DNA of 64,000 nt from an uncultured Candidatus Saccharibacteria bacterium (GTDB lineage Bacteria > Patescibacteriota > Minisyncoccia > Phycocordibacterales > WO2-35-19), in assembly GCA_964548205.1 (NCBI GenBank), contig CAZJPJ010000004.1:21577-85576 (forward strand), given 5' to 3'. Below, piece after piece: positions 5,476 to 58,227 of the stretch. The position numbers and the translations under genes are program-made. How positions within the stretch are numbered: the first letter of the stretch is position 1; every line of letters begins with the position of its first letter. The notes beneath the pieces are model-generated. The model saw only the letters and a list, made by a program, of their open reading frames with translations, did not search any database and was not told where the DNA came from.

Positions 5476-6673
5476 CTGTTTTTCTATTCTTTACTTCAAA
5501 CTTTCCAGATTCAATATTCTTTTCGCTCACTATGATTTGGTAAGGCATACCCAAGAGATCTGCATCTGCAAACTTTTCCCCAGCCCTTGCTTCTTTGTCA
5601 GCATAGAAACAATTGTTTTCTCCCAACTTCTTGTAAATCATTTCACTAACCTCCTTTACCTTACTGTTTTCTGAACTTATCTCTACAATATGATATCTAA
5701 ACGGAGCTACTTCTTCTGGCCAAGCCATACCTTTTTCATCTGAAAGCACTTCTACCAACACGCCCAAGAGTCTTGTTATACCAATACCGTAAGAACTTAG
5801 AAATACCGGCTTTCTTGCGCCATCTAGGTCTGTAAAGTAGAGCCCCAATTGCTCGCTTTTTTTTGTACCAAAATTAAATATGTTGCCGACTTCTGCTGCT
5901 TTTTTTTCTTCAAAATCAGCGCTAGTCTTTCCTAAAGACGCAAGAGTGTCAGTATTGAAAACCTCTTGATTTACTGCCTGTTTATTATCTTTAGATACAA
6001 AGATTACATCTTCGCCAGCATCAGTCAAAGTTTGAAATTCGTGACTAAACTTATCAGTAAAGGCGCCGCCAGAAGCACTTGTAACAAATGTGGACTCACC
6101 TATACCTATTCGCGCAAAAACTTTTCTGTATGAATCAATAACTCTGTTATAAAAATTATTATTCTCCTCTTCACTCTTTGCAAAGTAATACATATCTTTC
6201 ATCAAGAACTCTCTGCAACGCATGATGCCACTCTTTGCTCTAACTTCATTTCTAAGCTTATTCTGAAATTGGTGTACCGCGACAGGTAAATCGTTGTAGC
6301 TAGAGACATTGCCTTTCATTATCTCTGATATTGGTTCTTCATGTGACCAACCAAAACCCACCTCGCCACCAGCCTGCAAATTTGATTTAAACCAAACATC
6401 TACGTTTTTATCATCCCATCTATCTGTCTTTTGCCACAATTCTTTATTCTGCAACGTTGAGGCTAAAAGCTCTACAGAAGAAAGTAGCTGCATTTCTTCA
6501 TCGACTATTTTTTTTATCTTCTGCACCACCAAAAACCCCAGCGGCAATAAAGAATATACTCCGGCCATCTCTTTATGGATATAACCACCACGTATTAAGA
6601 GTATTGCGTTTTTAGATGACTCGTCACTCGGTGCCTCTCTTCTGGTCTTGGTAAAAAGCTCACTTTGTCTCAT
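5438..6673 (-). CDS. proS: prolyl-tRNA synthetase (short form without an editing insertion)
   Basis: N-terminus MRQSELFTKTRRE... matches class II ProRS; the C-terminal anticodon-binding region resembles ProRS. Confidence 0.85.
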   Translation of the reverse strand: MRQSELFTKTRREAPSDESSKNAILLIRGGYIHKEMAGVYSLLPLGFLVVQKIKKIVDEEMQLLSSVELLASTLQNKELWQKTDRWDDKNVDVWFKSNLQAGGEVGFGWSHEEPISEIMKGNVSSYNDLPVAVHQFQNKLRNEVRAKSGIMRCREFLMKDMYYFAKSEEENNNFYNRVIDSYRKVFARIGIGESTFVTSASGGAFTDKFSHEFQTLTDAGEDVIFVSKDNKQAVNQEVFNTDTLASLGKTSADFEEKKAAEVGNIFNFGTKKSEQLGLYFTDLDGARKPVFLSSYGIGITRLLGVLVEVLSDEKGMAWPEEVAPFRYHIVEISSENSKVKEVSEMIYKKLGENNCFYADKEARAGEKFADADLLGMPYQIIVSEKNIESGKFEVKNRKTGEIKMLSIDEIY

Positions 6674-17906: not shown

Positions 17907-17947
17907 ACCAAAATCATCTCATTTTTTGATAAAAAAAGAAAACTTTG

Positions 17948-18020
17948 CTCCGCGGGTAGGATTCGAACCTACGACCAACCCGTTAACAGCGGGCCGCTCT
18001 ACCAGCTGAGCTACCGCGGA
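17948..18020 (-). tRNA. tRNA-Asn (anticodon GTT)
   Basis: Minus-strand cloverleaf TCCGCGGTAGCTCAGCTGGTAGAGC...CTGTTAA...GGTTCGAATCC...CCGCGGAG. No encoded CCA. Confidence 0.85.
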
Positions 18021-18045
18021 ATAATGAATATTTAAAATAATTTTT

Positions 18046-18087
18046 CCCGCTCTACCATCCGCCAGCTGGCGGAGAGCTACCGCGGAA
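18046..18087 (-). repeat. partial copy of the tRNA-Asn 5' end (acceptor plus D-arm) with a 16-nt palindrome inserted in the D-loop, 25 nt upstream of the intact tRNA
   Basis: TCCGCGGTAGCTC [TCCGCCAGCTGGCGGA] TGGTAGAGCGGG compared with the tRNA's own positions 1-27. Confidence 0.6.
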
Positions 18088-18299
18088 TAAATTTTTTAAC
18101 GAACTCTCTGCCCCTAAAACTTTGCGATCACTTTTTCGATCTCTATAGGGCAACCCAAAAAGAATAGCAAAAAAAATAGTGGTAGTAAATATATCGCTAG
18201 CCGTCTTTCCCAAAGACTATATTTGTGGTACAATTCTTCCAGACAAAAGATCGGGTCGGCTGCTATCCCGACCTAACCAAGTTACCGGAAGGAGAGAAA

Positions 18300-19414: not shown

Positions 19415-20581
19415 TTAGCACAAACCACTGAGAATTTTTTTGAAATTTATGAGTATAGCTATCGATTCTTCTGGTGTTTTAGAATCCATAAGCATAGAAA
19501 GGTGTTTGTTTTTCTCTTCATAAACTCTTGTATCGCCAATAGACGAGACGGCATTGTTGAGATAAGACTTGAAATGCTTTTTCATCACAGCAAAGGACTT
19601 AAATAGAGAAAGATTTTTATCGAACATTTTGATATGCTCTATTAGAGCATCGATCCTCTCTAGTGCAGAAGCATTTGTGGTGACAAAGAGAAAAGGGTCG
19701 CCAAATATGGCTCTACCTAGCATCACCCCGTCGCAACCTGTCTCATCGGCCAGTTGGTAGGCATGAGGCACGTCTCTCACATCACCATTGCCGAAGATGA
19801 GAGTATGATCTCCCCCACCCGCTTCGCTACGCTCAGCACCCTCCCCTTGATCAGGGGAAGGCCTTGGGACAGAAATGCTCTTCGAAGAGACTTGCGACCT
19901 GCCCGCCTTGCTACGCAAGGCATTGCAGGCGGTGCGCGAAAAATACTCATCCCTTATCTCCACTGCTCTCTTTATCCTCTCCCACCTAGCAGGCACCTTG
20001 GACATTTCTTTGCGTGTGCGAGCATGCAAAGTGATAACTGCTGGTTGTGCTTCTAGTAAAGTCGGGAGCCAGCTTTCGAGCTCATCTTTGTTGTATCCAA
20101 GACGGGTCTTTACTGATACAGGTATCTCACTCTTGCCGTATTTTTTTGCACCATCTCTCACTCCCTTTTTTGCCGCTTCGATCAGCTCACGAGCAAGAGA
20201 AGGGTTCTTGATAAGTGCCGCTCCAGCTCCCTGCTTTTCTACACTTTTGTCCGGACAGCCCATATTGATATCTACTCCATCGAACCCGAGCTCTACTGCA
20301 AGCCTTGCCGTCTTCTCCATATGCTCCGGCTTGCTTGTGAAAAATTGAGCCACTATCGGCCTCTCGATCTCGTTATATTCCAGACCTTTCATCAGTCTTT
20401 TCTTTCCTTCCTCTGGAGCAAGAGCCAATCCATCGGCACTGACAAATTCAGTCCATGTCACATGAGGAATGTCTGAATTTTTTGATATGACATATCTAAA
20501 TGCACTGTCAGTAACATCAGCCATAGGAGCCAAACACAAAATCGGCTTTTTTAGATCCGCCCAGAACCCCAGATTTACCAT
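19415..20581 (-). CDS. tRNA-dihydrouridine synthase (Dus family) with a roughly 40-aa GC-rich in-frame insertion
   Basis: LAPMADVTDSAFR ... GFDGVDINMGCP ... GCDGVMLGRAIFGDPFLF. The insertion SRTACNALRSKAGRSQVSSKSISVPRPSPDQGEGAERSEAGGG is encoded by a GC-rich segment that carries the palindromic repeat. Confidence 0.85.
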   Translation of the reverse strand: MVNLGFWADLKKPILCLAPMADVTDSAFRYVISKNSDIPHVTWTEFVSADGLALAPEEGKKRLMKGLEYNEIERPIVAQFFTSKPEHMEKTARLAVELGFDGVDINMGCPDKSVEKQGAGAALIKNPSLARELIEAAKKGVRDGAKKYGKSEIPVSVKTRLGYNKDELESWLPTLLEAQPAVITLHARTRKEMSKVPARWERIKRAVEIRDEYFSRTACNALRSKAGRSQVSSKSISVPRPSPDQGEGAERSEAGGGDHTLIFGNGDVRDVPHAYQLADETGCDGVMLGRAIFGDPFLFVTTNASALERIDALIEHIKMFDKNLSLFKSFAVMKKHFKSYLNNAVSSIGDTRVYEEKNKHLSMLMDSKTPEESIAILINFKKILSGLC

Positions 20582-22024: not shown

Positions 22025-22064
22025 CCCCTCCCCTGATCAAGGGGAGGGGGTTGGGGGTGGGGTT
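22025..22064. repeat. GC-rich palindromic repeat element, copy A (CCCCTCCCCTGATCAAGGGGAGGGG plus a G-tract), lying just 3' of the ClpC-like gene and probably acting as its terminator
   Basis: Perfect 9 bp arms around TGATCAA. A near-identical copy lies at 29741..29784. Confidence 0.7.
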
Positions 22065-28237: not shown

Positions 28238-28272
28238 CCCCGACCGTCACAAGTCGGGGGTTGCTTTTTTAT
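28238..28272 (+). terminator. intrinsic terminator
   Basis: ccccgac-cgtcacaa-gtcgggg followed by ttgctttttta. Confidence 0.55.
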
Positions 28273-28280
28273 ACAGAGTG

Positions 28281-28289
28281 TGATATAAT
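28281..28289 (+). promoter_or_regulatory. extended -10 promoter element (TGaTATAAT)
   Basis: tgatataat lies 26 nt upstream of the ATG at 28315. Confidence 0.4.
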
Positions 28290-28314
28290 CAAAAATGGAA
28301 AGGAAACCTCAATC

Positions 28315-29740: not shown

Positions 29741-29784
29741 CCCCCCTCTCCTGATCAAGGGGAGGGGTTGGGGGGTGGGGTTTT
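29741..29784. repeat. GC-rich palindromic repeat element, copy B
   Basis: ccccctctcctgatcaaggggaggggttggggggtggggtttt; near-identical to copy A at 22025. Confidence 0.7.
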
Positions 29785-29846: not shown

Positions 29847-30233
29847 ATGAAAAAAGATTTTAAAGATTGGCACAAAGAAAAAAGTTGCTTGCAGGAAGAT
29901 AAGGTTCGTCCATTTTTTCATGAGAGAGAAGTTTGGTTTGCCTCTGTTGGTTTAAATATTGGTTTTGAACAAGACGGTAGAGGGGATAGATTCTTGAGAC
30001 CAGTTATTATTTTAAAGAAATTTAACAATGAAGTACTCTGGTGTATACCACTTACAAAAAATCAGAAGAAAGGGAAATATTATCTTCAATTTAGACTTGG
30101 AGATGAAACCAGCACAGCCATACTCTCTCAGATTCGCCTGATAGATTCAAAAAGATTGCAGTACAAAATCGGAAACCTTGAAGTAGATGACTTTAGTGAA
30201 CTAAAAAAGAAAATCACCCAAATTCTTGGATGA
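29847..30233 (+). CDS. PemK/MazF-family endoribonuclease toxin-like protein, solitary (no adjacent antitoxin ORF)
   Basis: EVWFASVGLNIGFEQDGRGDRFLRPVIILKK...LWCIPLTKNQKK...AILSQIRLIDSKRLQYKIGNL matches the MazF/PemK fold pattern. TATAAT lies 14 nt upstream. Confidence 0.55.
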   Translation: MKKDFKDWHKEKSCLQEDKVRPFFHEREVWFASVGLNIGFEQDGRGDRFLRPVIILKKFNNEVLWCIPLTKNQKKGKYYLQFRLGDETSTAILSQIRLIDSKRLQYKIGNLEVDDFSELKKKITQILG

Positions 30234-35253: not shown

Positions 35254-35351
35254 GATAGACTAAATATTATCACAAAAACCTCTCTAATTTTTGATTTTAG
35301 TGGATATATAGAGTATATTTCTAAGTATAAAACACACAGGTGTTTTCAGTG

Positions 35352-35420
35352 CCGGAGTGGATCAAAAGCAAACTGCTTTGCTTTTGATCCGAAGCTTGCG
35401 TAGGTGGCCGACACTCCGGC
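35352..35420 (+). repeat. tRNA-Leu 5'-end copy (tgccggagtgg) plus a palindromic hairpin plus the complementary 3' arm (cactccggca), forming a tRNA-like minihelix in the -35 region of the tRNA-Leu gene
   Basis: 11 nt identical to the tRNA 5' end. Internal hairpin atcaaaagcaaactgctttgcttttgat. The terminal segment ccgacactccggca is complementary to the start. Confidence 0.5.
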
Positions 35421-35455
35421 ATGTATAATGAAAAAGCTACGCATGTTTTCATAAT

Positions 35456-35539
35456 GCCGGAGTGGCGGAATGGCAGACGCGCACGACTCAAAATCGTGTC
35501 TCGCAAGGGGTGTGGGTTCAAGTCCCACCTCCGGCACCA
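35456..35539 (+). tRNA. tRNA-Leu (anticodon CAA), class II, CCA encoded
   Basis: GCCGGAGTGGCGGAATGGCAGACGCGCACGACTCAAAATCGTG...GGGTTCAAGTCCCACCTCCGGCACCA; TATAAT at 35424. Confidence 0.85.
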
Positions 35540-45462: not shown

Positions 45463-45511
45463 CGTCGGTGGTAGAGCTTGCCCCGCCACGGCGGGGTGAA
45501 GTCAATTACAA
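45463..45511 (+). repeat. tRNA-Tyr 5' fragment (positions 1-27) with a 25-nt GC hairpin inserted in the D-loop, immediately upstream of the GIY-YIG gene
   Basis: gcgtcggtggtagag [cttgccccgccacggcggggtgaag] tcaattacaa compared with the intact tRNA's gcgtcggtggtagagtggtcaattacaa. Confidence 0.65.
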
Positions 45512-45512
45512 T

Positions 45513-45755
45513 ATGTGGTATGTATATATTCTCAAAAGCTTGAAGGATGAAAAATACTATATAGGTTGTACAGATAATTTAGAGAGAAGAATTGATCAAC
45601 ACAACAGAGGAGAAAATTCATCGACTAGATTCCGGAGACCTTTTGAGTTAATCTATACAGAAACATACGCGAATAGCAGTATTGCTTATTCGAGAGAAAA
45701 GAAAATAAAAAGATACAAAGGTGGAAATACCTTTAGGAAATTGATAAGTAAATAA
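45513..45755 (+). CDS. GIY-YIG nuclease family protein (small, UPF0213/YhbQ-like)
   Basis: MWYVYILKSLKDEKYYIGCTDNLERRIDQHNRG, the GIY-YIG motif. The ATG at 45513 is preferred; the track ORF starts from an upstream GTG that lies inside the tRNA fragment. Confidence 0.7.
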   Translation: MWYVYILKSLKDEKYYIGCTDNLERRIDQHNRGENSSTRFRRPFELIYTETYANSSIAYSREKKIKRYKGGNTFRKLISK

Positions 45756-45756
45756 T

Positions 45757-45840
45757 GCGTCGGTGGTAGAGTGGTCAATTACAACAGACTGTAAATCTGT
45801 CGGCCTTAGGCCTACGCAGGTTCGAATCCTGCCCGGCGCA
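45757..45840 (+). tRNA. tRNA-Tyr (anticodon GTA), class II long variable arm
   Basis: GCGTCGGTGGTAGAGTGGTCAATTACAACAGACTGTAAATCTGTCGGCCTTAGGCCTACGCAGGTTCGAATCCTGCCCGGCGCA. Confidence 0.85.
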
Positions 45841-46037
45841 CAGCGCAAAACAAAACAAAAACAGGATAAATGCCTGTTTTTGTTTTCGTGCCTATGCACG
45901 AGGGAGGATTCGAAAGCCGGAGGGCACGGAGCGAAGCGAAGTCCGAACTTAGCAAAGTTCGGGCCCGAGGTGGGGTCGCGGAAAATTATTTTTGACGAAA
46001 AATAATTTATCTGTGACCGAATCCTGCCCGGCGCACA
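45823..46037 (+). mobile_element. att-like structure: a 20-nt direct repeat of the tRNA-Tyr 3' end (cgaatcctgcccggcgcaca) bounding a roughly 175 bp hairpin-rich segment; remnant of an element integrated at the tRNA 3' end
   Basis: Identical 20-mers at 45823..45842 and 46018..46037; internal palindromes (acaaaaacagg...cctgtttttgt and aaaattattttt-gacg-aaaaataatttt). Confidence 0.55.
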
Positions 46038-51241: not shown

Positions 51242-52723
51242 ATGACTAACAACAATGAAAACAACACAAAGAGACCTCCGGTAGTAGTAGTGATGGGGCA
51301 CATCGATCATGGCAAATCAACACTGCTAGATTTTATACGCAAATCTAAAATAGTAGAACGTGAGGCAGGAGGAATAACCCAACACGTAGGCGCATACGAA
51401 GTGGAAGTAGGTAATGATAAGTCAAAGATAACTTTTCTCGATACTCCAGGCCACGAAGCCTTTTGTTCGATCAGAGAACATGGTTCAAAAACTGCTGATA
51501 TAGCCGTACTCGTAGTCTCTGCAGAAGATGGGGTAAAACCCCAAACCATAGAAGCCCTAAAGTGCATCACTACCGAAAACTTGCCATACATAGTAGCGAT
51601 AAACAAGATCGACAAACCAAACGCAAACGTAGAGAAGATAAAACAAGAACTTGCAGAAAAGGAAGTGTATCTAGAGGGTTGGGGCGGCCATGTACCAGTA
51701 GTGGCTATATCAGCAAAGACAGGACAAAATGTAGACGAACTTCTAGAGCTTATATTGCTCCAAGCAGAACTTTTGGAGCTAAAATCGGACTCTAGTTCAA
51801 CTGCAAGCGGTTTCGTCGTAGAGAGCAACATGGATAGCAAGACAGGTATAAGAGCAACACTAATCGTAAAAGATGGCACCCTACTAAAACAGACATTCTT
51901 AGCAACCCCGAACGCTTGGACAGTAGTACGAATGATCGAATCGAGTGAAAAGAAAATACTAGACAATGCAATAGCTTCGACCCCAATCATCATAACAGGC
52001 TGGAGCGAAGTGCCCATGGTTGGCTCTACGTTCAAAGCTTATGAAAGCAAAGATAAAGCAATAGAAGCGGCAAGCTGTATGGCCAAAGATAGCAAGGAAA
52101 CAGAGGAAGTTGCTTTGGATTTTGTTGTGACAAATCTTATAGTGCGCGCAGATACTCATGGCAGCATGGAAGCTATAAAGCATGAACTAGAAAAGCTCAA
52201 CTCTGAATTTATAGAAAAGAAGGTTATAGCACGCATCGTGGCCTCAGGTATCGGGGCAATAACAGAAAGTGATGTAAAGAACGCATCTAGCAGCAAATCT
52301 ATTGTCATAGGGTTCAATGTAAAACAAGACAAAAATGCAGCCGCTATATCTCTCAGAGACAATGTAGAAATACTAGATTTCAATATCATATACGAGCTTA
52401 CTGATGCTATAAAAAACAAAATGCAACAGATAGTACCCTCTACAGAAGAAGATATGATCATAGGCAGAGCCACTGTACTGAAAAAATTTAGCCAGACAAA
52501 AGACAAACAGGTCTTGGGCTGCAAGATAGAATCAGGAGAGGCCAAAAAGGGATCTAGCTTGAAAGTCTTGAGAAGAGACACAGAAATCGGTGTCGGCAAA
52601 ATAAAGGAGCTTCAAAGCAAGAAAGAAAAAGTGGGTAAAGTAAGTGAAGGTGAAGAATGCGGCATGCTTGTAGAATCAAAGACTGAAATACTCTTAGGTG
52701 ACACACTTACAATATTCAACTAG
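51242..52723 (+). CDS. infB: translation initiation factor IF-2 (short form lacking the N-terminal extension)
   Basis: VVVVMGHIDHGKSTLLD (G1), DTPGHEAF (G3), NKID (G4). Confidence 0.9.
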   Translation: MTNNNENNTKRPPVVVVMGHIDHGKSTLLDFIRKSKIVEREAGGITQHVGAYEVEVGNDKSKITFLDTPGHEAFCSIREHGSKTADIAVLVVSAEDGVKPQTIEALKCITTENLPYIVAINKIDKPNANVEKIKQELAEKEVYLEGWGGHVPVVAISAKTGQNVDELLELILLQAELLELKSDSSSTASGFVVESNMDSKTGIRATLIVKDGTLLKQTFLATPNAWTVVRMIESSEKKILDNAIASTPIIITGWSEVPMVGSTFKAYESKDKAIEAASCMAKDSKETEEVALDFVVTNLIVRADTHGSMEAIKHELEKLNSEFIEKKVIARIVASGIGAITESDVKNASSSKSIVIGFNVKQDKNAAAISLRDNVEILDFNIIYELTDAIKNKMQQIVPSTEEDMIIGRATVLKKFSQTKDKQVLGCKIESGEAKKGSSLKVLRRDTEIGVGKIKELQSKKEKVGKVSEGEECGMLVESKTEILLGDTLTIFN

Positions 52724-52805
52724 TGCCCGAGGTGGGGGTCGAACCCACATCCCTTTCGAGACACGATTTTAAGTCGTGCGCGTATACCGATTCCGCCACT
52801 CGGGC
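52724..52805 (-). tRNA. tRNA-Leu (anticodon TAA)
   Basis: GCCCGAGTGGCGGAATCGGTATACGCGCACGACTTAAAATCGTG...GGGTTCGACCCCCACCTCGGGCA. Confidence 0.8.
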
Positions 52806-52876
52806 ATCCGCCTACACTTCGCACAAGCGAAGCGCTGAACTTTTATAGTCGCTCCCTGCTCCTTAAAAATTCAAGG

Positions 52877-52948
52877 AGGCCTAGGGCGGAATCGAACCGC
52901 CGTATAAGGGTTTTGCAGACCCTTGCCTTACCACTTGGCGACTAGGCC
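52877..52948 (-). tRNA. tRNA-Cys (anticodon GCA)
   Basis: GGCCTAGTCGCCAAGTGGTAAGGCAAGGGTCTGCAAAACCCTTATACGGCGGTTCGATTCCGCCCTAGGCCT. Confidence 0.8.
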
Positions 52949-52980: not shown

Positions 52981-53296
52981 GTCCGCTCAGAGGGAATCGG
53001 TCACGAGTTCCTTCGCCAAGCTCAGGACTCTCGACCCCAGCTCGCCCGTCTCGCTTTGCTCGACATGGCTCCGCTTTTCGATTCCTCACGCAAGCAAAGC
53101 AGTTTGCTTGCTTTCGCGTCCAAACCGCTTCGCAACTTGTCCGCTCAGAGGGAATCGGTCACGAGTTCCTTCGCCAAGCTCAGGACTCTCGACCCCAGCT
53201 CGCCCGTCTCGCTTTGCTCGACATGGCTCCGCTTTTCGATTCCTCACGCAAGCAAAGCAGTTTGCTTGCTTTCGCGTCCAAACCGCTTCGCAACTT
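52981..53296. repeat. two tandem 158 bp repeat units, each beginning (in plus-strand view) with a 19-nt copy of the tRNA-Lys 3' end
   Basis: Units at 52981..53138 and 53139..53296 are essentially identical. Each starts gtccgctcagagggaatcg, the 3' end of tRNA-Lys. Each contains the hairpin gcaagcaaagcagtttgcttgc. Confidence 0.75.
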
Positions 53297-53297
53297 G

Positions 53298-53370
53298 TCC
53301 GCTCAGAGGGAATCGAACCCCCGACCATCTCCTTAAGAGGGAGCTGCTCTACCAGCTGAGCTATGAGCGG
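53298..53370 (-). tRNA. tRNA-Lys (anticodon CTT); the acceptor stem begins C1:G72
   Basis: CCGCTCATAGCTCAGCTGGTAGAGCAGCTCCCTCTTAAGGAGATGGTCGGGGGTTCGATTCCCTCTGAGCGGA. Confidence 0.75.
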
Positions 53371-53415
53371 ATACTCTTTATATTTTTATCATAAAATTTC
53401 TTTGATAGAAATTTG

Positions 53416-53496
53416 TGCTGAGGAGAGGACTTGCACCTCCACGCCTTGCGGCACTAGTTCCTAAGACTAGCGTGTCTTCTATTTCACCACCTCAGC
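53416..53496 (-). tRNA. tRNA-Leu (anticodon TAG), class II; atypical D-loop (no GG) and a T-loop TGCAAGT (G55)
   Basis: GCTGAGGTGGTGAAATAGAAGACACGCTAGTCTTAGGAACTAGTGCCGCAAGGCGTGGAGGTGCAAGTCCTCTCCTCAGCA. Confidence 0.55.
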
Positions 53497-53936
53497 AATC
53501 AATACTTCTAAAACTCTTCAAAACAACTTTCTCCTTCCTTTTGATGTAAGGTAAAGTATGGCTATTATACACTGATTTTATTATTTTTAAAGTATCAGAT
53601 TTACAAAATTGTAGGGCAGACACACTTTGTAATTTATGCTTATAAATCGAGCCTCCTGTGCACGAAAACTTTTGTTTAATTTTCTTATGCATCCAAATTA
53701 GAAAATTTGGACTCGCTGAATACAACCGGAGTTTCAGTTGCCATTGTACACTTTTTATTTTTACTAAGACTTATAGCGTATACCATCTATTACATAATAC
53801 ACGAGAATTATTTGATAATAAACATAGTCAGCATGAAATATTGGGGAATCATTTATACCCACAAAATATACCAAAAATAAGGTCATTTTGAGATGTAAAC
53901 AACTGGTGTTTACATACTGAAATCGAGAGGTAGAAT

Positions 53937-54444: not shown

Positions 54445-54800
54445 AATTTCGCAAAAGCTCACTATCTCACGGGGCACGGCCTTGCACAGAAGTAAGGATT
54501 TTGCCGTTTCAGCTTGGCATTGCTACCAAGACGTTCCGATCGCTTGGAACCCCTATTCTTTCGAAATCGGGCGTTTCTGTTCGCACCTCTTCCAATTTTG
54601 CCCACCGAAAGTGGTCGCAAAATTGAGAATCCGCCGAAGCTTTAGTGAAGGCGGAGACATTGTCTCAACTTTGTATTCACTTTCAGTGAACAAAACCAGA
54701 GACGGGTGTTACCCGCTACCCTGCTGCATATGAGGTGGCAAGATCTTGCGAGCTCCACCTCATATGCCTGTGTTCGGACTTTCCTCCACGTGAGATAACT
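54445..54800 (-). ncRNA. rnpB: RNase P RNA (bacterial type, reduced); antisense to track ORF 54380..54733
   Basis: The minus strand reads ...GGAGGAAAGUCCGAACACAGG... (P4 5' strand), ...CAGGGUAGCGGGUAACACCCG..., ...GAACAGAAACGCCCGAUU... (P4 3' strand-like). P1 pairing UAUCUCACGUGG/CCGUGAGAUAG spans about 54463..54797. The segment is GC-rich in an AT-rich context. Ends are approximate. Confidence 0.7.
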
Positions 54801-55041
54801 GCAAACTATCCTTCAACCGGGATTTTATATACCGTCTGCCCCAAGCAGTTTTAAGATACTTTTCTCTTTTTAGAGAATCTCTGCTACTTGAACAGGCTTC
54901 ATAATATACAAGTCTCCATGGCCCGCGGTTTTTTGTAGCAATAGACTTATTGTCGTTATGTTCTTTAAGTCTTCGCTTCAGATCAGAAGTATATCCGATA
55001 TAAAACTGCTTTGGGCCTTTGATTATGTATACGTAGTGCAT
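54760..55041 (-). CDS. GIY-YIG nuclease family protein (UPF0213/YhbQ-like), paralog 2; its 3' end overlaps the predicted 5' end of rnpB
   Basis: MHYVYIIKGPKQFYIGYTSDLKRRLKEHN. Confidence 0.65.
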   Translation of the reverse strand: MHYVYIIKGPKQFYIGYTSDLKRRLKEHNDNKSIATKNRGPWRLVYYEACSSSRDSLKREKYLKTAWGRRYIKSRLKDSLQLSHVEESPNTGI

Positions 55042-55177
55042 AATTTACAATTATCTCACGTGGCTGTTGCACGAAATATGGCCTGAAATATAGGTTATCA
55101 CACATTTCCCCAAAATTCAACATTTTGCTTGCATTTTCTATCATAATATGCTATAATAAAAGTAGGAGGTGGTCATA

Positions 55178-55579
55178 ATGAAGATCACATTATTGCTCGT
55201 TTTCACGCTGGTCGCGGTGACCAGCTCCACTTTGCTGGCCCAAGGCCGGCAGGCCGGCTCGGTGGCCATCGCCGAGCACATCAGTTCAAACCTTGTGCTC
55301 GACTCAGTGAAGTGCCTGGAGCGAGCAACAAATAACAATATTAGGGCTGGAGAGAAAAATCCGGCCGAAAAGGCATCCAAGTTTTGTCAAACCTCAGTCA
55401 ACGCTGAAGTTAAGAGGAGTACGGGGGTTGCCAACGAGGCCGCAGACGCCACAAAGGCATCGGCCCCTCGGGGAGTAGTTCTTCCCGGGGGAATAGGACT
55501 TGGTTGGGGGGGTTACTACGGGGGAGGAGGCTTCATCCTCCGCAGGCCGATCGGTCGGCGGCAGATAGTCCGGCGGTAA
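55178..55579 (+). CDS. secreted hypothetical protein with a Gly/aromatic-rich C-terminal tail (GGIGLGWGGYYGGGGFILRRPIGRRQIVRR); GC-elevated
   Basis: AGGAGGTG Shine-Dalgarno site, 6 nt, ATG; Sec signal MKITLLLVFTLVAVTSSTLLAQG. Confidence 0.5.
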   Translation: MKITLLLVFTLVAVTSSTLLAQGRQAGSVAIAEHISSNLVLDSVKCLERATNNNIRAGEKNPAEKASKFCQTSVNAEVKRSTGVANEAADATKASAPRGVVLPGGIGLGWGGYYGGGGFILRRPIGRRQIVRR

Positions 55580-55588
55580 GACCGCCAA

Positions 55589-55630
55589 TCCCGTCGAGAT
55601 GCACACAGCACCTCGACGGGATTTTTATTT
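55589..55630 (+). terminator. intrinsic terminator
   Basis: atcccgtcgag-atgcacacagcacc-tcgacgggat followed by ttttattt. Confidence 0.55.
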
Positions 55631-55639
55631 ACAAAAACC

Positions 55640-55668
55640 TTGCATTTTCCACCCTTTTGTGATATAAT
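55640..55668 (+). promoter_or_regulatory. sigma70-type promoter (TTGCAT, 17-nt spacer, TGtGATATAAT extended -10)
   Basis: ttgcat-tttccacccttttgtga-tataat. Confidence 0.5.
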
Positions 55669-55715
55669 AGAGGGTGGAAGTAGATCTTCTACAAATCTAT
55701 TTAGAGGCAACGAAA

Positions 55716-56852
55716 ATGACGGAAAAGAATGAAGAAAAGATCCAAGAAAAAGGGGTGGGTGGCCCCAACCCCCCACCGGAATACCAGTGGATAGTTACGG
55801 TCCCCCAAGAGTGGTTCAGACTGGTTCTTAGGGGAGAGGACCTTGACTCAATTATCCACGGAGCGCGTGGATACAGAGTCAACGAGGAATTGGAATTTGA
55901 AAAAATCCCACCGGGATTTGAAGACGCTTACGACCTATCACCTAGACACCTCTTCCGCCAAGTAACTGGGCGGGAATTCGTCGGGATTCCCAAGCTCAAG
56001 AGGACCGGTATATACGGAAAAAAATTCCGTTGGGCCGCGTTTTTTCCAAGAACCGAAGGAGGTGGTGAGAACGGTAAACCGGTATACACGCCGGGCTGGC
56101 ACGACCAAGAAATCGTGCGGGCATTTCCTCTCGTATCGAGTTACCCTCTAACCTTTACAAATATCGACGTACAAGGTCGAGAGGTGACAACTGGCGACCC
56201 GTCGATCGTCCAGATCGCGATGACGGTCATCATCCGAGTCAGGATGCTAAGGCCACGGATCGCACTGATGCAAAATACCGACTGGCTCGGAAACGGCGTG
56301 TCCCCCTATCTCCAAGGTCGCATTGGTGACTATATGAGGACTGGAGGAGATGACACAAATATTATGTCCTATGACCGTGTCATACGTCGTGATAGATTGA
56401 ACGGTAGAGGAAGTCGGTTTCGCAACACCTTTCTCGGCACGTTGATCAATGGCGGAAAGCAAGTCGAGCGAAGCAGTTTGAGACTCTCCTTACTTGCACA
56501 GTATGGAGTGGACCTCATCGACGTGCAAGTCGTCGATGTGCAAACGAACGAAGAGTTCGAGAAGAAGCTGAGAGCACTAGCCGACGCCGATATCGATGCC
56601 GCAATCATCGAGCGGCAGGCAAGAGCCGAAGCCCAGAAGCGAAAGCTTCAGGCTGAGGCCGAGGGAGAGTATATTCGCCAAACATCAGCCGCCATTCAGG
56701 ACAGACTCCGCCGGTTGATGGAAAGCATGGGAGGAGACGCGGCTAGCGTAAGGGCGATCGAATATGCCTATGCCCTGCGCGACTCCAAACTCACCACCCT
56801 TGCCGGGGCCGGCGTCAGCCTCGTCGTAGGCCCAGACGGCACCATCCGCTAG
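55716..56852 (+). CDS. SPFH/Band-7-domain protein with a roughly 160-aa N-terminal extension and no predicted TM; GC-elevated
   Basis: ...YGVDLIDVQVVDVQTNEEFEKKLRALADADIDAAIIERQARAEAQKRKLQAEAEGEY... then ...VRAIEYAYALRDSKLTTL...VVGPDG, which fits the SPFH core plus the coiled-coil pattern of HflK/C, stomatin and flotillin. Confidence 0.55.
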   Translation: MTEKNEEKIQEKGVGGPNPPPEYQWIVTVPQEWFRLVLRGEDLDSIIHGARGYRVNEELEFEKIPPGFEDAYDLSPRHLFRQVTGREFVGIPKLKRTGIYGKKFRWAAFFPRTEGGGENGKPVYTPGWHDQEIVRAFPLVSSYPLTFTNIDVQGREVTTGDPSIVQIAMTVIIRVRMLRPRIALMQNTDWLGNGVSPYLQGRIGDYMRTGGDDTNIMSYDRVIRRDRLNGRGSRFRNTFLGTLINGGKQVERSSLRLSLLAQYGVDLIDVQVVDVQTNEEFEKKLRALADADIDAAIIERQARAEAQKRKLQAEAEGEYIRQTSAAIQDRLRRLMESMGGDAASVRAIEYAYALRDSKLTTLAGAGVSLVVGPDGTIR

Positions 56853-56994
56853 ACCCAAGCCCTGTTTAGGGCAAACCAACCCCCAAATGCATCGCTTTCA
56901 AGGCATAGCGTGAGGGGGTTGCTTTTTTATACGAAATGTGCTATAATATAAATAGGTCTGTGTACAATAACAATTGCATAAGGAGACGAAGGAA

Positions 56995-58227
56995 ATGAAC
57001 GCAATAAATAGTGGAAATGGCCGCTTGATTAGCGGCCAGACGATGGCCCAGTCTTTCTGGGCCCAGTTCTGGGCCTGGATCAAGTATAGTTGGGCGACAA
57101 GTGGGTGGTGGAAAAAAATCACCCTCGTCCTGCGGGCAATCTGGGCACTCCTGGTCGCAGGAGTACGGTTTCGGATCTTATCAGCAGGGCTCGCCGGATT
57201 GGCCGCTTTGGCCATCATCCTCGGGGTAGCATACTGGTTCGTGATGGGTGGTTACAAGTGGTTATTTAGCTCCACTATGTGGATGCTGTTTGCCACTGCC
57301 ATCTTCATCGGCCTATGGTGGCACCTTCGGAAGTACAAGGATGAGGATTTCGTAAAAATTGCGGGGGGAAAGTTCGTAGCCAAACCCCTGCGGTCAGCTC
57401 CGTTATGGGCAATCGCTGTCATCTGGGCAATCTGGGTCGCCGTTCAGGCGATAATTCTGGGTTGGCAAGGTGTGGTCGCGATCTACAAGCTCGCCGCAGA
57501 CTGGTTCTTCAACTTTTCTGGGGGGCTCGCTCTCTGGAAAGTCGCTCTGGGTTTACTCCTGCTAGCCGGCATTGTGTGGGTAATAAGCATACTCGTCCGG
57601 TGGGCAAGAAAGTCTAGAGAGGAGAACGACAAAACCTTTGGACTCGGCTCGGCCCTCGTAGTCGGCATGGTGGCAGTAGCAATACTGAACACCATACTGT
57701 TTCTCGAAGCGTATCTATGGATCGCTTTCGCAGAGAACCACACGGCTGGGTTCCTGGGAACCAACCTCTCTCTCTGGCTTGCTGTAAGCGCATGGCTGGT
57801 CAGAGACAAGGAGGGCAACCGCCCCGCTTGGTCTGCCAATGCTTCAAATATCCTATTTGCTCTCGCTTTAATCGGCGTCAGCATAGCGGGATGGGAGGCA
57901 TTCCGGCAAATCGAGGAACCGATTACTTACGAGGCGGTTCCTGGAGGGGTACTGGCAAAGGTTCTTGCTCCAATCGACGATTGGAGTAAAAACCTATCCG
58001 TCCGAGGAAACAAGTTCAACCTTGAAACCGTCCCCGGACGGAAGTTCAAGGTGAAATTCCTCGGATACGAGGTTAAGGACGGGAGAAGGATTCCTTTGGT
58101 CAAAGTTTTCGTGGTCAACGACAATGACCACGATTTCGAGACTGATGGAGTGATTCAAGAAATACTTGTTCAATCACTCGATGGGAGACCGATGAGAGTT
58201 CCAGTCGAGATGATGTCGCGGCGATAA
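56995..58227 (+). CDS. Trp-rich polytopic membrane protein (about 8 TM) with a roughly 110-aa C-terminal soluble domain; GC-elevated; function unknown
   Basis: AAGGAGA Shine-Dalgarno site; TATAAT at 56943; TM helices rich in W (WAQFWAWIKYSW..., LWAIAVIWAIWVAV...). Confidence 0.45.
   Translation: MNAINSGNGRLISGQTMAQSFWAQFWAWIKYSWATSGWWKKITLVLRAIWALLVAGVRFRILSAGLAGLAALAIILGVAYWFVMGGYKWLFSSTMWMLFATAIFIGLWWHLRKYKDEDFVKIAGGKFVAKPLRSAPLWAIAVIWAIWVAVQAIILGWQGVVAIYKLAADWFFNFSGGLALWKVALGLLLLAGIVWVISILVRWARKSREENDKTFGLGSALVVGMVAVAILNTILFLEAYLWIAFAENHTAGFLGTNLSLWLAVSAWLVRDKEGNRPAWSANASNILFALALIGVSIAGWEAFRQIEEPITYEAVPGGVLAKVLAPIDDWSKNLSVRGNKFNLETVPGRKFKVKFLGYEVKDGRRIPLVKVFVVNDNDHDFETDGVIQEILVQSLDGRPMRVPVEMMSRR

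Follow-up and report, generated by a model that had tools for sequence, protein, structure and literature searches.

Integrative elements which target tRNA genes, including the cis-mobilizable elements (CIMEs), insert at the 3' end of a tRNA gene, leave the tRNA intact, carry a direct repeat from the T-loop to the 3' end and can accrete in tandem. The same traits were found in a short element of tRNA 3' trailers which stands as a tandem pair behind tRNA-Lys(CTT) of an uncultured Candidatus Saccharibacteria bacterium. The analyzed DNA, referred to as the window, is a stretch of 64,000 nt (assembly GCA_964548205.1, contig CAZJPJ010000004.1, positions 21,577 to 85,576), and the positions given below are those of the window. 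Unlike the integrative elements, the element has a body of 139 bp with no integrase near it, and it occurs at 33 tRNA species with rewritten arms. In addition, its repeat varies from 3 to 21 nt and is accompanied by its own complement, and the RNA contains a three-way junction that covaries. It is firmly supported that the two units are tandem copies of a conserved, structured element of tRNA trailers, with arms that imitate the tRNA beside it.

R2-type retroelements and short interspersed nuclear elements (SINEs) resemble the element in having no promoter of their own, in an orientation fixed to the host RNA gene and in a target sequence at the 3' end of the transcript; arrays, and perhaps also flanking repeats of variable length and truncated copies, are common to both. 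In contrast to them, the element is found in a bacterial host without an identified reverse transcriptase or endonuclease, it is not derived from a tRNA body, and it has no poly(A) or retroelement tail. The tRNA mimics (tmRNA, the Y RNA YrlA, viral 3' tRNA-like structures, mascRNA) likewise possess an acceptor/T-arm-like helix ending at the discriminator and are plausible substrates of tRNA-processing enzymes. However, they are single-copy or viral, keep the T-loop and mimic tRNA generically, whereas the element has the junction in place of the T-loop and a helix copied from one particular neighboring tRNA.

Similarly to REP/BIME, ERIC, Correia/NEMIS and RUP repeats and miniature inverted-repeat transposable elements (MITEs), the element is short, multi-copy, non-coding, co-transcribed, hairpin-forming and patchy. 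Those repeats differ by fixed terminal inverted repeats and by the absence of a tie to tRNA 3' ends and of a conserved multi-helix junction. The bridge (seek) RNAs of IS110/IS1111 combine a conserved RNA scaffold with reprogrammable segments that match a DNA target, as the element does, but the element has neither an adjacent DEDD recombinase gene nor a donor-binding loop, and its two programmable segments complement each other instead of adjacent half-sites. The element thus shares traits with several known kinds and meets the defining features of none. No description of it was found in full-text literature searches.

The tandem pair behind tRNA-Lys(CTT)

With Tandem Repeats Finder, a period of 158 nt and 2.1 copies were determined for 52981-53315, with 100% matches and no indels. 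The repeat search of the window also resulted in two 158-nt copies with 100% identity (Table 1). The two identical 158-bp units described in an earlier note on this DNA were thereby confirmed, and so was their bounding by a copy of the tRNA-Lys 3' end: the 19-mer GTCCGCTCAGAGGGAATCG starts at 52981, 53139 and 53297, at a spacing of 158 nt. The third of these copies is the 3' end of tRNA-Lys(CTT) itself on the minus strand. In the RNA sense the 19-mer reads CGAUUCCCUCUGAGCGGAC and covers tRNA-Lys from C56 of the T-loop to the discriminator, plus one base. Each unit consists of a 139-nt body and a 19-nt copy of the tRNA-Lys 3' end, and unit 2 begins at the base right after tRNA-Lys. With its three 19-mers the locus shows the integrative-element feature of a tRNA 3' segment as direct repeat flanking an insert. 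The preceding tRNA-Lys is intact, hence the locus is not an interrupted tRNA gene. The copy number of two is that of the assembly.

The folding energy of the unit was -67.9 kcal/mol (z -3.8) for the minus-strand, tRNA-sense RNA, compared with -45.5 kcal/mol (z -1.05) for the plus strand. The 5' strand of the closing helix P1 in the Lys units, UGAGGAAUCG, pairs with CGAUUCC(C)UC with a score of 7.5 of 10 and one bulged C. The complement of the T-part, the CUGC hairpin, the core and the exact 19-nt copy are all present in these units.

Other copies in the window

A second element of the family, 196 nt long, was found after tRNA-Tyr by reading the flanks of the other tRNAs of the window. At its end, GTGACC precedes 20 nt copied from the tRNA-Tyr 3' end (46018-46037); the Lys units end alike. 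The fold of the Tyr element was cloverleaf-like and four-way in shape, with an energy of -88.1 kcal/mol and a z of -8.1. The blocks shared in the Lys/Tyr alignment were GAGGAWTCGAAA(A)GC(C)GGAG and CGAGSTGGGGTCG-[hairpin]-GTGACCGAWTCC. The pattern GGGGTCG-N15-45-GTGACC, with 0.01 matches expected, was detected in the window only at the two Lys units and the Tyr element. In both cases the block before the A-rich stretch complements the T-loop/T-stem part of the terminal copy, and the blocks differ so as to match their own copies (AAUCG:CGAUU for Lys vs AUUCG:CGAAU for Tyr). A full element was found at two of the eight tRNAs of the window.

Exactly three sites of the window contain the hairpin core AAGCAAACTGCTTTGCTT: 53092-53109 (-), 53250-53267 (-) and 35366-35383 (+). 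The chance expectation is 0.17, and three matches were reached in none of 100 shuffles. The third site lies in a 71-nt pseudo-tRNA upstream of tRNA-Leu(CAA), which contains the acceptor 5' and 3' strands of that tRNA, a 14-bp CUGC hairpin and the remnants CGAAGC..GUGGCCGA. P2 and P3 are missing from it, and its E-value with the covariance model R1 (see below) was only about 1-2. It is read as a miniature derivative, with membership based on architecture and not on score. The earlier note had linked the units to this upstream element by the shared hairpin, and the link holds, as the CUGC-loop stem is a covarying module of the whole family.

Two further observations concern this site. The end of the pseudo-tRNA is the exact start of an extended -10-like sequence, TGTATAAT (35421-35428). 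About 20 nt (GTTTTCA..TGCCGGAGTGG), including the tRNA leader, are duplicated on both sides of it (35341-35466), which suggests a rearranged tandem copy of tRNA-Leu.

The family across genomes

A one-genome-per-species scan with the pattern CGAGSTGGGGTCG-N15-45-GTGACCGA resulted in at least 120 loci. The individual fetched loci are denoted by L-numbers (L010 etc.), and the family counts cover the matches listed. About half of the loci were metagenome-assembled genomes (MAGs) labelled as Patescibacteria, in which the match follows closely on a tRNA and the architecture recurs; the other listed loci were chance matches in high-GC coding DNA. The labels among the matches listed were Saccharibacteria, Paceibacteria, Nomura-, Yanofsky-, Moran-, Kaiser-, Taylor-, Adler- and Campbellbacteria. 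Three Elusimicrobia-labelled MAGs with the element were also among the matches listed (L055, L062, L109).

Twenty-seven clean elements were aligned with MAFFT, a consensus was calculated with RNAalifold, and R1 was built from the 27. As one Lys unit and the Tyr element were included in the training set, the R1 score of the Lys units (79.5 bits each) is partly circular. Independently of the score, the Lys unit is supported by the way it aligns with the Tyr element and with 25 elements of other genomes. The only R1 matches in the window were the two Lys units and the Tyr element (74.8 bits). In total, R1 gave at least 104 matches in 67 sources, i.e. 66 fetched loci and the window.

A same-strand tRNA was located within 260 nt upstream of 76 of the 104 R1 matches, and these 76 span at least 33 tRNA species of 16 amino-acid identities. 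Most of the other 28 matches were at contig ends or behind tRNAs missed by ARAGORN. The element was always on the tRNA-sense strand. Linkage to tRNA-Lys(CTT) recurred in many lineages (L029, L031, L046, L050, L084, L198, L199 and the window). The earlier note had held that its reading would fall if the unit or hairpin had no other copies elsewhere in the genome; many copies exist.

Consensus structure and covariation

The RNAalifold consensus of the 27 elements was a three-way junction with 30 pairs, 18 of which carried compensatory changes. In the MAFFT alignment, which was made independently of the model, 92.7% of the cells were paired, compared with 34-44% when the partners were slid. The determined covariation score was 0.514 vs 0.178 in shuffles and was reached in none of the 500. 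Double changes were detected in 29 of the 30 pairs among 85 model-aligned matches. On the tRNA-sense strand, G·U and U·G were counted 171 times and A·C and C·A 34 times. The G·U at the base of P3 was near-invariant, being found in 27 of 27 and in 78 of 82 sequences. The G·U excess and the near-invariant G·U are suggestive of RNA, or of one single strand, in the tRNA sense.

Canonical members follow a common 5' to 3' order after the tRNA. A hairpin, often terminator-like, is followed by a segment complementing the 3' strand of the acceptor, a short hairpin with a CUGC (sometimes UGGGA) loop and a covarying stem, and a complement of the T-stem 3' strand together with T-loop positions 56-60. An AAAA junction leads to P2, composed of A-S-C / GGA ... 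GA / G-S-U, in which the S positions covary (14 G-C vs 12 C-G). After a GG linker comes P3, GGUCG ... UGACC, with a variable hairpin and a conserved bulged A, and the copy of the tRNA from C56 to the 3' end follows with no linker before it. The copy makes up the 3' strand of the closing helix and its complement the 5' strand. The closing helix reproduces the acceptor/T-arm minihelix of the neighboring tRNA, because the complement is broken by the CUGC hairpin at the T-stem/acceptor boundary. Compared with a tRNA, the CUGC hairpin sits at the place of the D and anticodon arms and the junction at the place of the T-loop.

Against Rfam 15, with its tRNA clan and its tmRNA, Y RNA-like and self-cleaving ribozyme families, only tRNAs were detected in the whole window at the gathering threshold, and no match overlapped the units at E-values up to 10. 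The canonical members in L092, L033, L010 and L034 gave no overlap at E-values up to 0.1.

The arms follow the adjacent tRNA

At most loci the 5' strand of P1 was complementary at 9-10 of 10 positions to the stretch from C56 through the 3' strand of the T-stem. The 3' copy could be assessed in 62 elements. It was identical to the C56-to-3'-end stretch of the tRNA or one base off in 24 of them, which span 18 tRNA species, and CCA was copied where the gene encodes CCA. In 33 of the 62, more than 5 positions differed or indels were present. In members without the long copy, GUGAC is followed by the same 3 nt with which the adjacent tRNA gene ends: CAC in L197, L199, L052, L071 and L084, and GAC, three times, in L198, whose tRNA-Lys ends with GAC. 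These matches imply a flanking direct repeat which is anchored at the tRNA end and is 3 to 19-21 nt long. The complement of the tRNA 3' end was present even where the 3' copy was absent (L197-L199).

Origin and possible role of the element

The reading that we favor, and hold with about even confidence, is that of a duplicative, probably selfish and non-autonomous element of tRNA 3' trailers, co-transcribed and tRNA-like. Duplication is suggested by the tRNA-anchored direct repeats, the heterogeneous arrays, the fragments and the absence from the same tRNA elsewhere. Arrays of differing subtypes or fragments were found in L010, L034, L025, L028, L112, L198 and L197, and tandem arrays of the family in the independent MAGs L010, L034, L112, L114 and L119. 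The same core subtype, e.g. that with the P2 hairpin GCAUAUUUUUGUUUUGCGAAGCAAAGGCAAAAAUGC, can be found in several MAGs behind unlike tRNAs, and the arms then differ entirely. Fragments comprising only the 3' part were detected in L197, L198, L084 and L092 with a model that is biased towards P3. The syntenic Cys-Leu(TAA)-Lys(CTT)-Leu(TAG) cluster beside the gene of translation initiation factor 2 (IF-2) in L122-L124 had no R1 match, and in L123 just a 45-nt spacer follows tRNA-Lys. Of the nearer relatives by IF-2, L198 (57% identity) and L199 (55%) have one Lys-linked element each, of a different subtype, and L197 (57%) has a decayed one. Closer relatives for a comparison of empty sites or copy number were not found (the best IF-2 was 57%, and the metagenome scan gave 47% at most), and exact-protein look-ups of three neighboring genes gave no other assembly. 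The comparisons therefore stand at the family level only.

According to the favored reading, the element would gain and keep a foothold at tRNA 3' ends and duplicate there. Its expression would depend on the tRNA promoter, the units would be released by the enzymes excising the flanking tRNAs (cuts of RNase Z or RNase P type), and the conserved RNA fold would be recognized by a putative trans-acting factor. For the perfect tandem pair, the most likely origin is a recent event between the 19-nt repeats, either unequal recombination or slippage during replication; that the element inserted a second time, into the 19-nt copy, is less likely.

Several results weigh against the favored reading. The Lys units are without the acceptor-5' complement found in canonical members, which makes processing by tRNA enzymes uncertain for both copies. 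At many loci an intrinsic-terminator-like hairpin lies between the tRNA and the core, and read-through transcription is doubtful there. The Lys and Tyr elements share about 72% of the alignable columns; as the copies at different loci of the window are not near-identical, nothing points to a recent transposition in this genome. The Pfam scan of 10 ORFs (open reading frames) of the window revealed no integrase, transposase or reverse transcriptase, the scan of viral contigs with the core pattern gave only three chance matches in high-GC coding DNA, and blastn of the unit vs phage records gave nothing. The favored reading also offers no way in which the arms could be refitted to another tRNA. 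Even between very distant lineages the core is conserved. The elements of L198 and L199 are orthologous, with 78% identity over tRNA and element, which equals or exceeds that of the flanking coding DNA, and between the two a change at the tRNA end is compensated in the element (CGGAC/GUCCG vs CGCAC/GUGCG). Owing to the deep conservation, the retention of orthologues and the compensatory change, a host function fits at least as well as a selfish one.

A host-beneficial RNA of tRNA metabolism, acting in cis or in trans, with the tandem as a simple gene duplication, is accordingly a possible explanation, which we regard as rather unlikely. It could be a trailer-encoded tRNA mimic or 'anti-3'-end' module which pairs with or imitates the acceptor/T-arm of its own tRNA and thereby controls the 3' maturation, folding, stability or modification of that tRNA, or a decoy for a factor that reads the acceptor/T-arm. 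Besides the L198/L199 pair, this explanation draws on the deep conservation of the unpaired junction bases and the strong covariation, the strict co-orientation and adjacency to tRNAs, the complement kept in the members without the 3' copy, and the recurrence of the tRNA-Lys(CTT)-linked position in many lineages. It accounts less well for the patchy occurrence at the tRNAs of the window, for the syntenic cluster with no model match after tRNA-Lys, and for the decayed copies, fragments and mixed-subtype arrays. Moreover, the arms are often degenerate, as in the 33 of 62 elements mentioned above, and a conserved partner gene was not found nearby. Still more tentatively, the family may represent a new class of tRNA-templated or RNA-guided genetic element, in which a conserved three-way-junction RNA scaffold has arms rewritten to copy and complement the local tRNA 3' end. 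The rewritten arms would let such an element home to, or act on, any tRNA gene or transcript, either as a self-programming mobile RNA/DNA element or as a per-tRNA guide or mimic ribonucleoprotein widespread in Patescibacteria.

The earlier note had explained the units by iterated insertion and excision at a tRNA att site or by a minisatellite derived from one. The stretch from the T-loop to the 3' end is a known att sublocation of tRNA-targeting integrases. The direct repeat spans just this stretch in three evenly spaced copies, as would be expected if a phage or an integrative element with a tyrosine integrase had repeatedly used the tRNA-Lys 3' end as attB and the 19 nt as att core. However, the 139-bp insert is a conserved structured element and not element cargo, and the same body stands with matching arms behind at least 33 tRNA species, a spread for which a single att specificity based on protein alone cannot account. 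From the G·U excess on one strand, RNA is indicated rather than duplex att DNA. The cognate integrase or recombinase, for which the earlier note had proposed a search, was absent from the 10 scanned ORFs, and no copy of the element was found in viral contigs or phage records; att scars are thus considered very improbable. Even less credit is given to an assembly artefact (collapse or expansion) or a meaningless local minisatellite formed by slippage. The two units are 100% identical, and the sole other assembly of the organism (Logan SRR15237813, a 6.9-kb contig) ends 29 nt past the IF-2 gene, before the repeat. Nevertheless, the element also exists as a single copy, behind tRNA-Tyr in the window and at about 100 sites of other genomes, in disagreement with a locus-specific minisatellite, and tandem arrays of the same family were found in independent MAGs. 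The R1 score of the unit speaks likewise with the circularity described above, and the alignment to the Tyr element and the 25 elements of other genomes is independent of it.

If the conserved tRNA-trailer element is confirmed, a structured RNA element without an Rfam match lies at a large share of the tRNA genes of Patescibacteria (and of some Elusimicrobia-labelled MAGs), whose genomes are among the smallest and least understood bacterial ones. The conserved junction must then be read by some factor. This would give a testable handle on tRNA maturation or on a new tRNA-targeted mobile element in uncultured lineages, and would account for spurious ORF calls and assembly breaks at tRNA clusters. 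R1 is a covariance model with which the element can be annotated. The arms reprogrammed per target would be of interest to RNA-guided technology, if a partner enzyme exists.

Other candidates and the tRNA-Glu fusions

Several known motifs and systems were considered and rejected. A K-turn was discarded since the bulge of the GGA/GA loop is too short, and a hammerhead since the CUGAUGA...GAAA core is missing. The 'ACA' after P3 in the copy-less members, which would suggest an H/ACA RNA, is more plausibly the final 3 nt of the tRNA, since GAC stands there in L198. The complement generally spares the non-encoded CCA and is interrupted by the CUGC hairpin, which does not fit a primer-binding site.

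In three loci the element is fused to the 5' part of tRNA-Glu, comprising the acceptor, the D arm and the TTC anticodon arm (L051 5638-5724, L052 4546-4610, L084 2638-2729). The acceptor stem of the L084 fusion shows compensatory changes (5' TGACCAA, 3' TAGGTCA). A T-loop intron was rejected, as each fusion stands immediately upstream of an intact tRNA-Glu. The junction CGGGU is common to the T-stem of the tRNA and to the element module CGGGUGAG-hairpin-GCAAGACC, which is also found in L028 and L043. The fusions are read as deletions at the shared CGGGU; an insertion into the T-loop is also possible.

Small GIY-YIG ORFs were more frequent in the element loci, 8 in 530 kb vs 1 in 486 kb. A GIY-YIG nuclease as the mobilizer was nevertheless rejected: homologues sit just upstream of tRNAs in loci without the element, which implies that the link is to tRNA genes and not to the element. 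The gap between the end of a GIY-YIG ORF (PF01541) and the co-oriented tRNA gene after it is 2-12 nt, and the tRNA differs from site to site. Such sites were found in the window at 45510-45752 (+), by tRNA-Tyr 45757-45841, and at 54760-55041 (-), and elsewhere in L200 2501-2746 (Gln), L203 2501-2749 (Ser) and L024 2145-2429 (Val). Two Logan contigs end 41 nt after the GIY-YIG ORF. The ORF looks like a free-standing gene of the homing-endonuclease type that would target the 5' side of tRNA genes, and it is separate from the element.

The tRNA operon and its surroundings

The tRNA genes were placed with ARAGORN and Rfam, and the features of the element loci are presented in Table 1. The four-tRNA cluster described earlier was found again, with Leu(TAG), Lys(CTT), Cys(GCA) and Leu(TAA) all on the minus strand. 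No terminator-like site was detected on the minus strand from the promoter-like site to tRNA-Cys. Given this and the promoter-like site upstream, both units are most likely transcribed inside a Leu-Lys-[unit-unit]-Cys-Leu operon. The neighbors of the units are tRNA genes, IF-2 and ClpB, and the rest of the window looks housekeeping. The overlapping ORFs over the repeat had been taken for artefacts, and we agree: they run across tRNA genes on both strands, and one of them reads the two identical units in different frames, as 158 is not a multiple of 3.

Table 1. Positions of the tandem units, their parts and the related features in the window.
Feature	Position	Strand	Basis
tRNA-Leu(TAG), first gene of the operon	53415..53496	-	ARAGORN, Rfam
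tRNA-Lys(CTT); its last 19 nt, 53297-53315, are the first direct-repeat copy	53297..53370	-	
Unit 2, tRNA-proximal	53139..53296	-	repeat finding, RNA fold
Unit 2, CUGC-loop hairpin GCAAGCAAA-CUGC-UUUGCUUGC	53248..53269	-	
Unit 2, three-way-junction core: P1 5' strand, J1/2 AAAA, P2 with GGA/GA internal loop, GG linker, P3 GGUCG...UGACC, P1 3' strand	53146..53246	-	R1 79.5 bits, E 3.7e-24
Closing 19 nt of unit 2, copied from the tRNA-Lys 3' end (C56 to A73 plus C)	53139..53157	-	
Unit 1, tRNA-distal, 100% identical to unit 2	52981..53138	-	repeat finding
Unit 1, CUGC-loop hairpin	53090..53111	-	
Unit 1, three-way-junction core	52988..53088	-	R1 79.5 bits, E 3.7e-24
19-nt copy of the tRNA-Lys 3' end closing unit 1	52981..52999	-	
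tRNA-Cys(GCA), downstream of the units, within the operon	52875..52948	-	
tRNA-Leu(TAA), last gene of the operon	52723..52805	-	
Promoter-like site upstream of the operon: TTTAAA, 16-nt spacer, TATAAT	53564..53591	-	consensus match only
Single element directly after tRNA-Tyr(GTA) (45757-45841)	45842..46037	+	core 45903-46029
71-nt pseudo-tRNA, read as a miniature derivative, upstream of tRNA-Leu(CAA)	35349..35421	+	fold z -4.0

Further observations

Upstream of tRNA-Asn (17947-18020, minus), a partial copy of the 5' end of this tRNA with 4 nt of its leader was found at 18041-18090. Its D-loop is replaced by the perfect palindrome CCGCCAGCTGGCGG, and it stands outside the three-way-junction family. 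The Saccharibacteria MAG of L010, which also has an array of the element, carries a LOOT RNA (RF03000, 72.7 bits) at 6513-6628 (+).

A GC-rich island (0.49-0.54 compared with about 0.40) extends over 55000-58000, and its start is about 1.5 kb away from the tRNA operon. An SPFH/Band-7 protein and a protein of 417 amino acids without a Pfam match are encoded there, and the island may be DNA acquired beside the tRNA cluster. A promoter-like block, TTGCWTTTT, spacer and TATAAT, recurs at 55128-55170, 55639-55681, 56918-56960 and 28256-28294, often followed by a Shine-Dalgarno-like sequence, and is probably the strong promoter consensus of the organism. The GC-rich palindromic repeat CCCCTCCCCTGATCAAGGGGAGGGG, followed by a G-rich tail, was found at 19838-19877, 22025-22064 and 29743-29782 in this AT-rich genome. 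An ORF of the PemK/MazF toxin type (PF02452, E 1.2e-10) is located at 29847-30233 (+).

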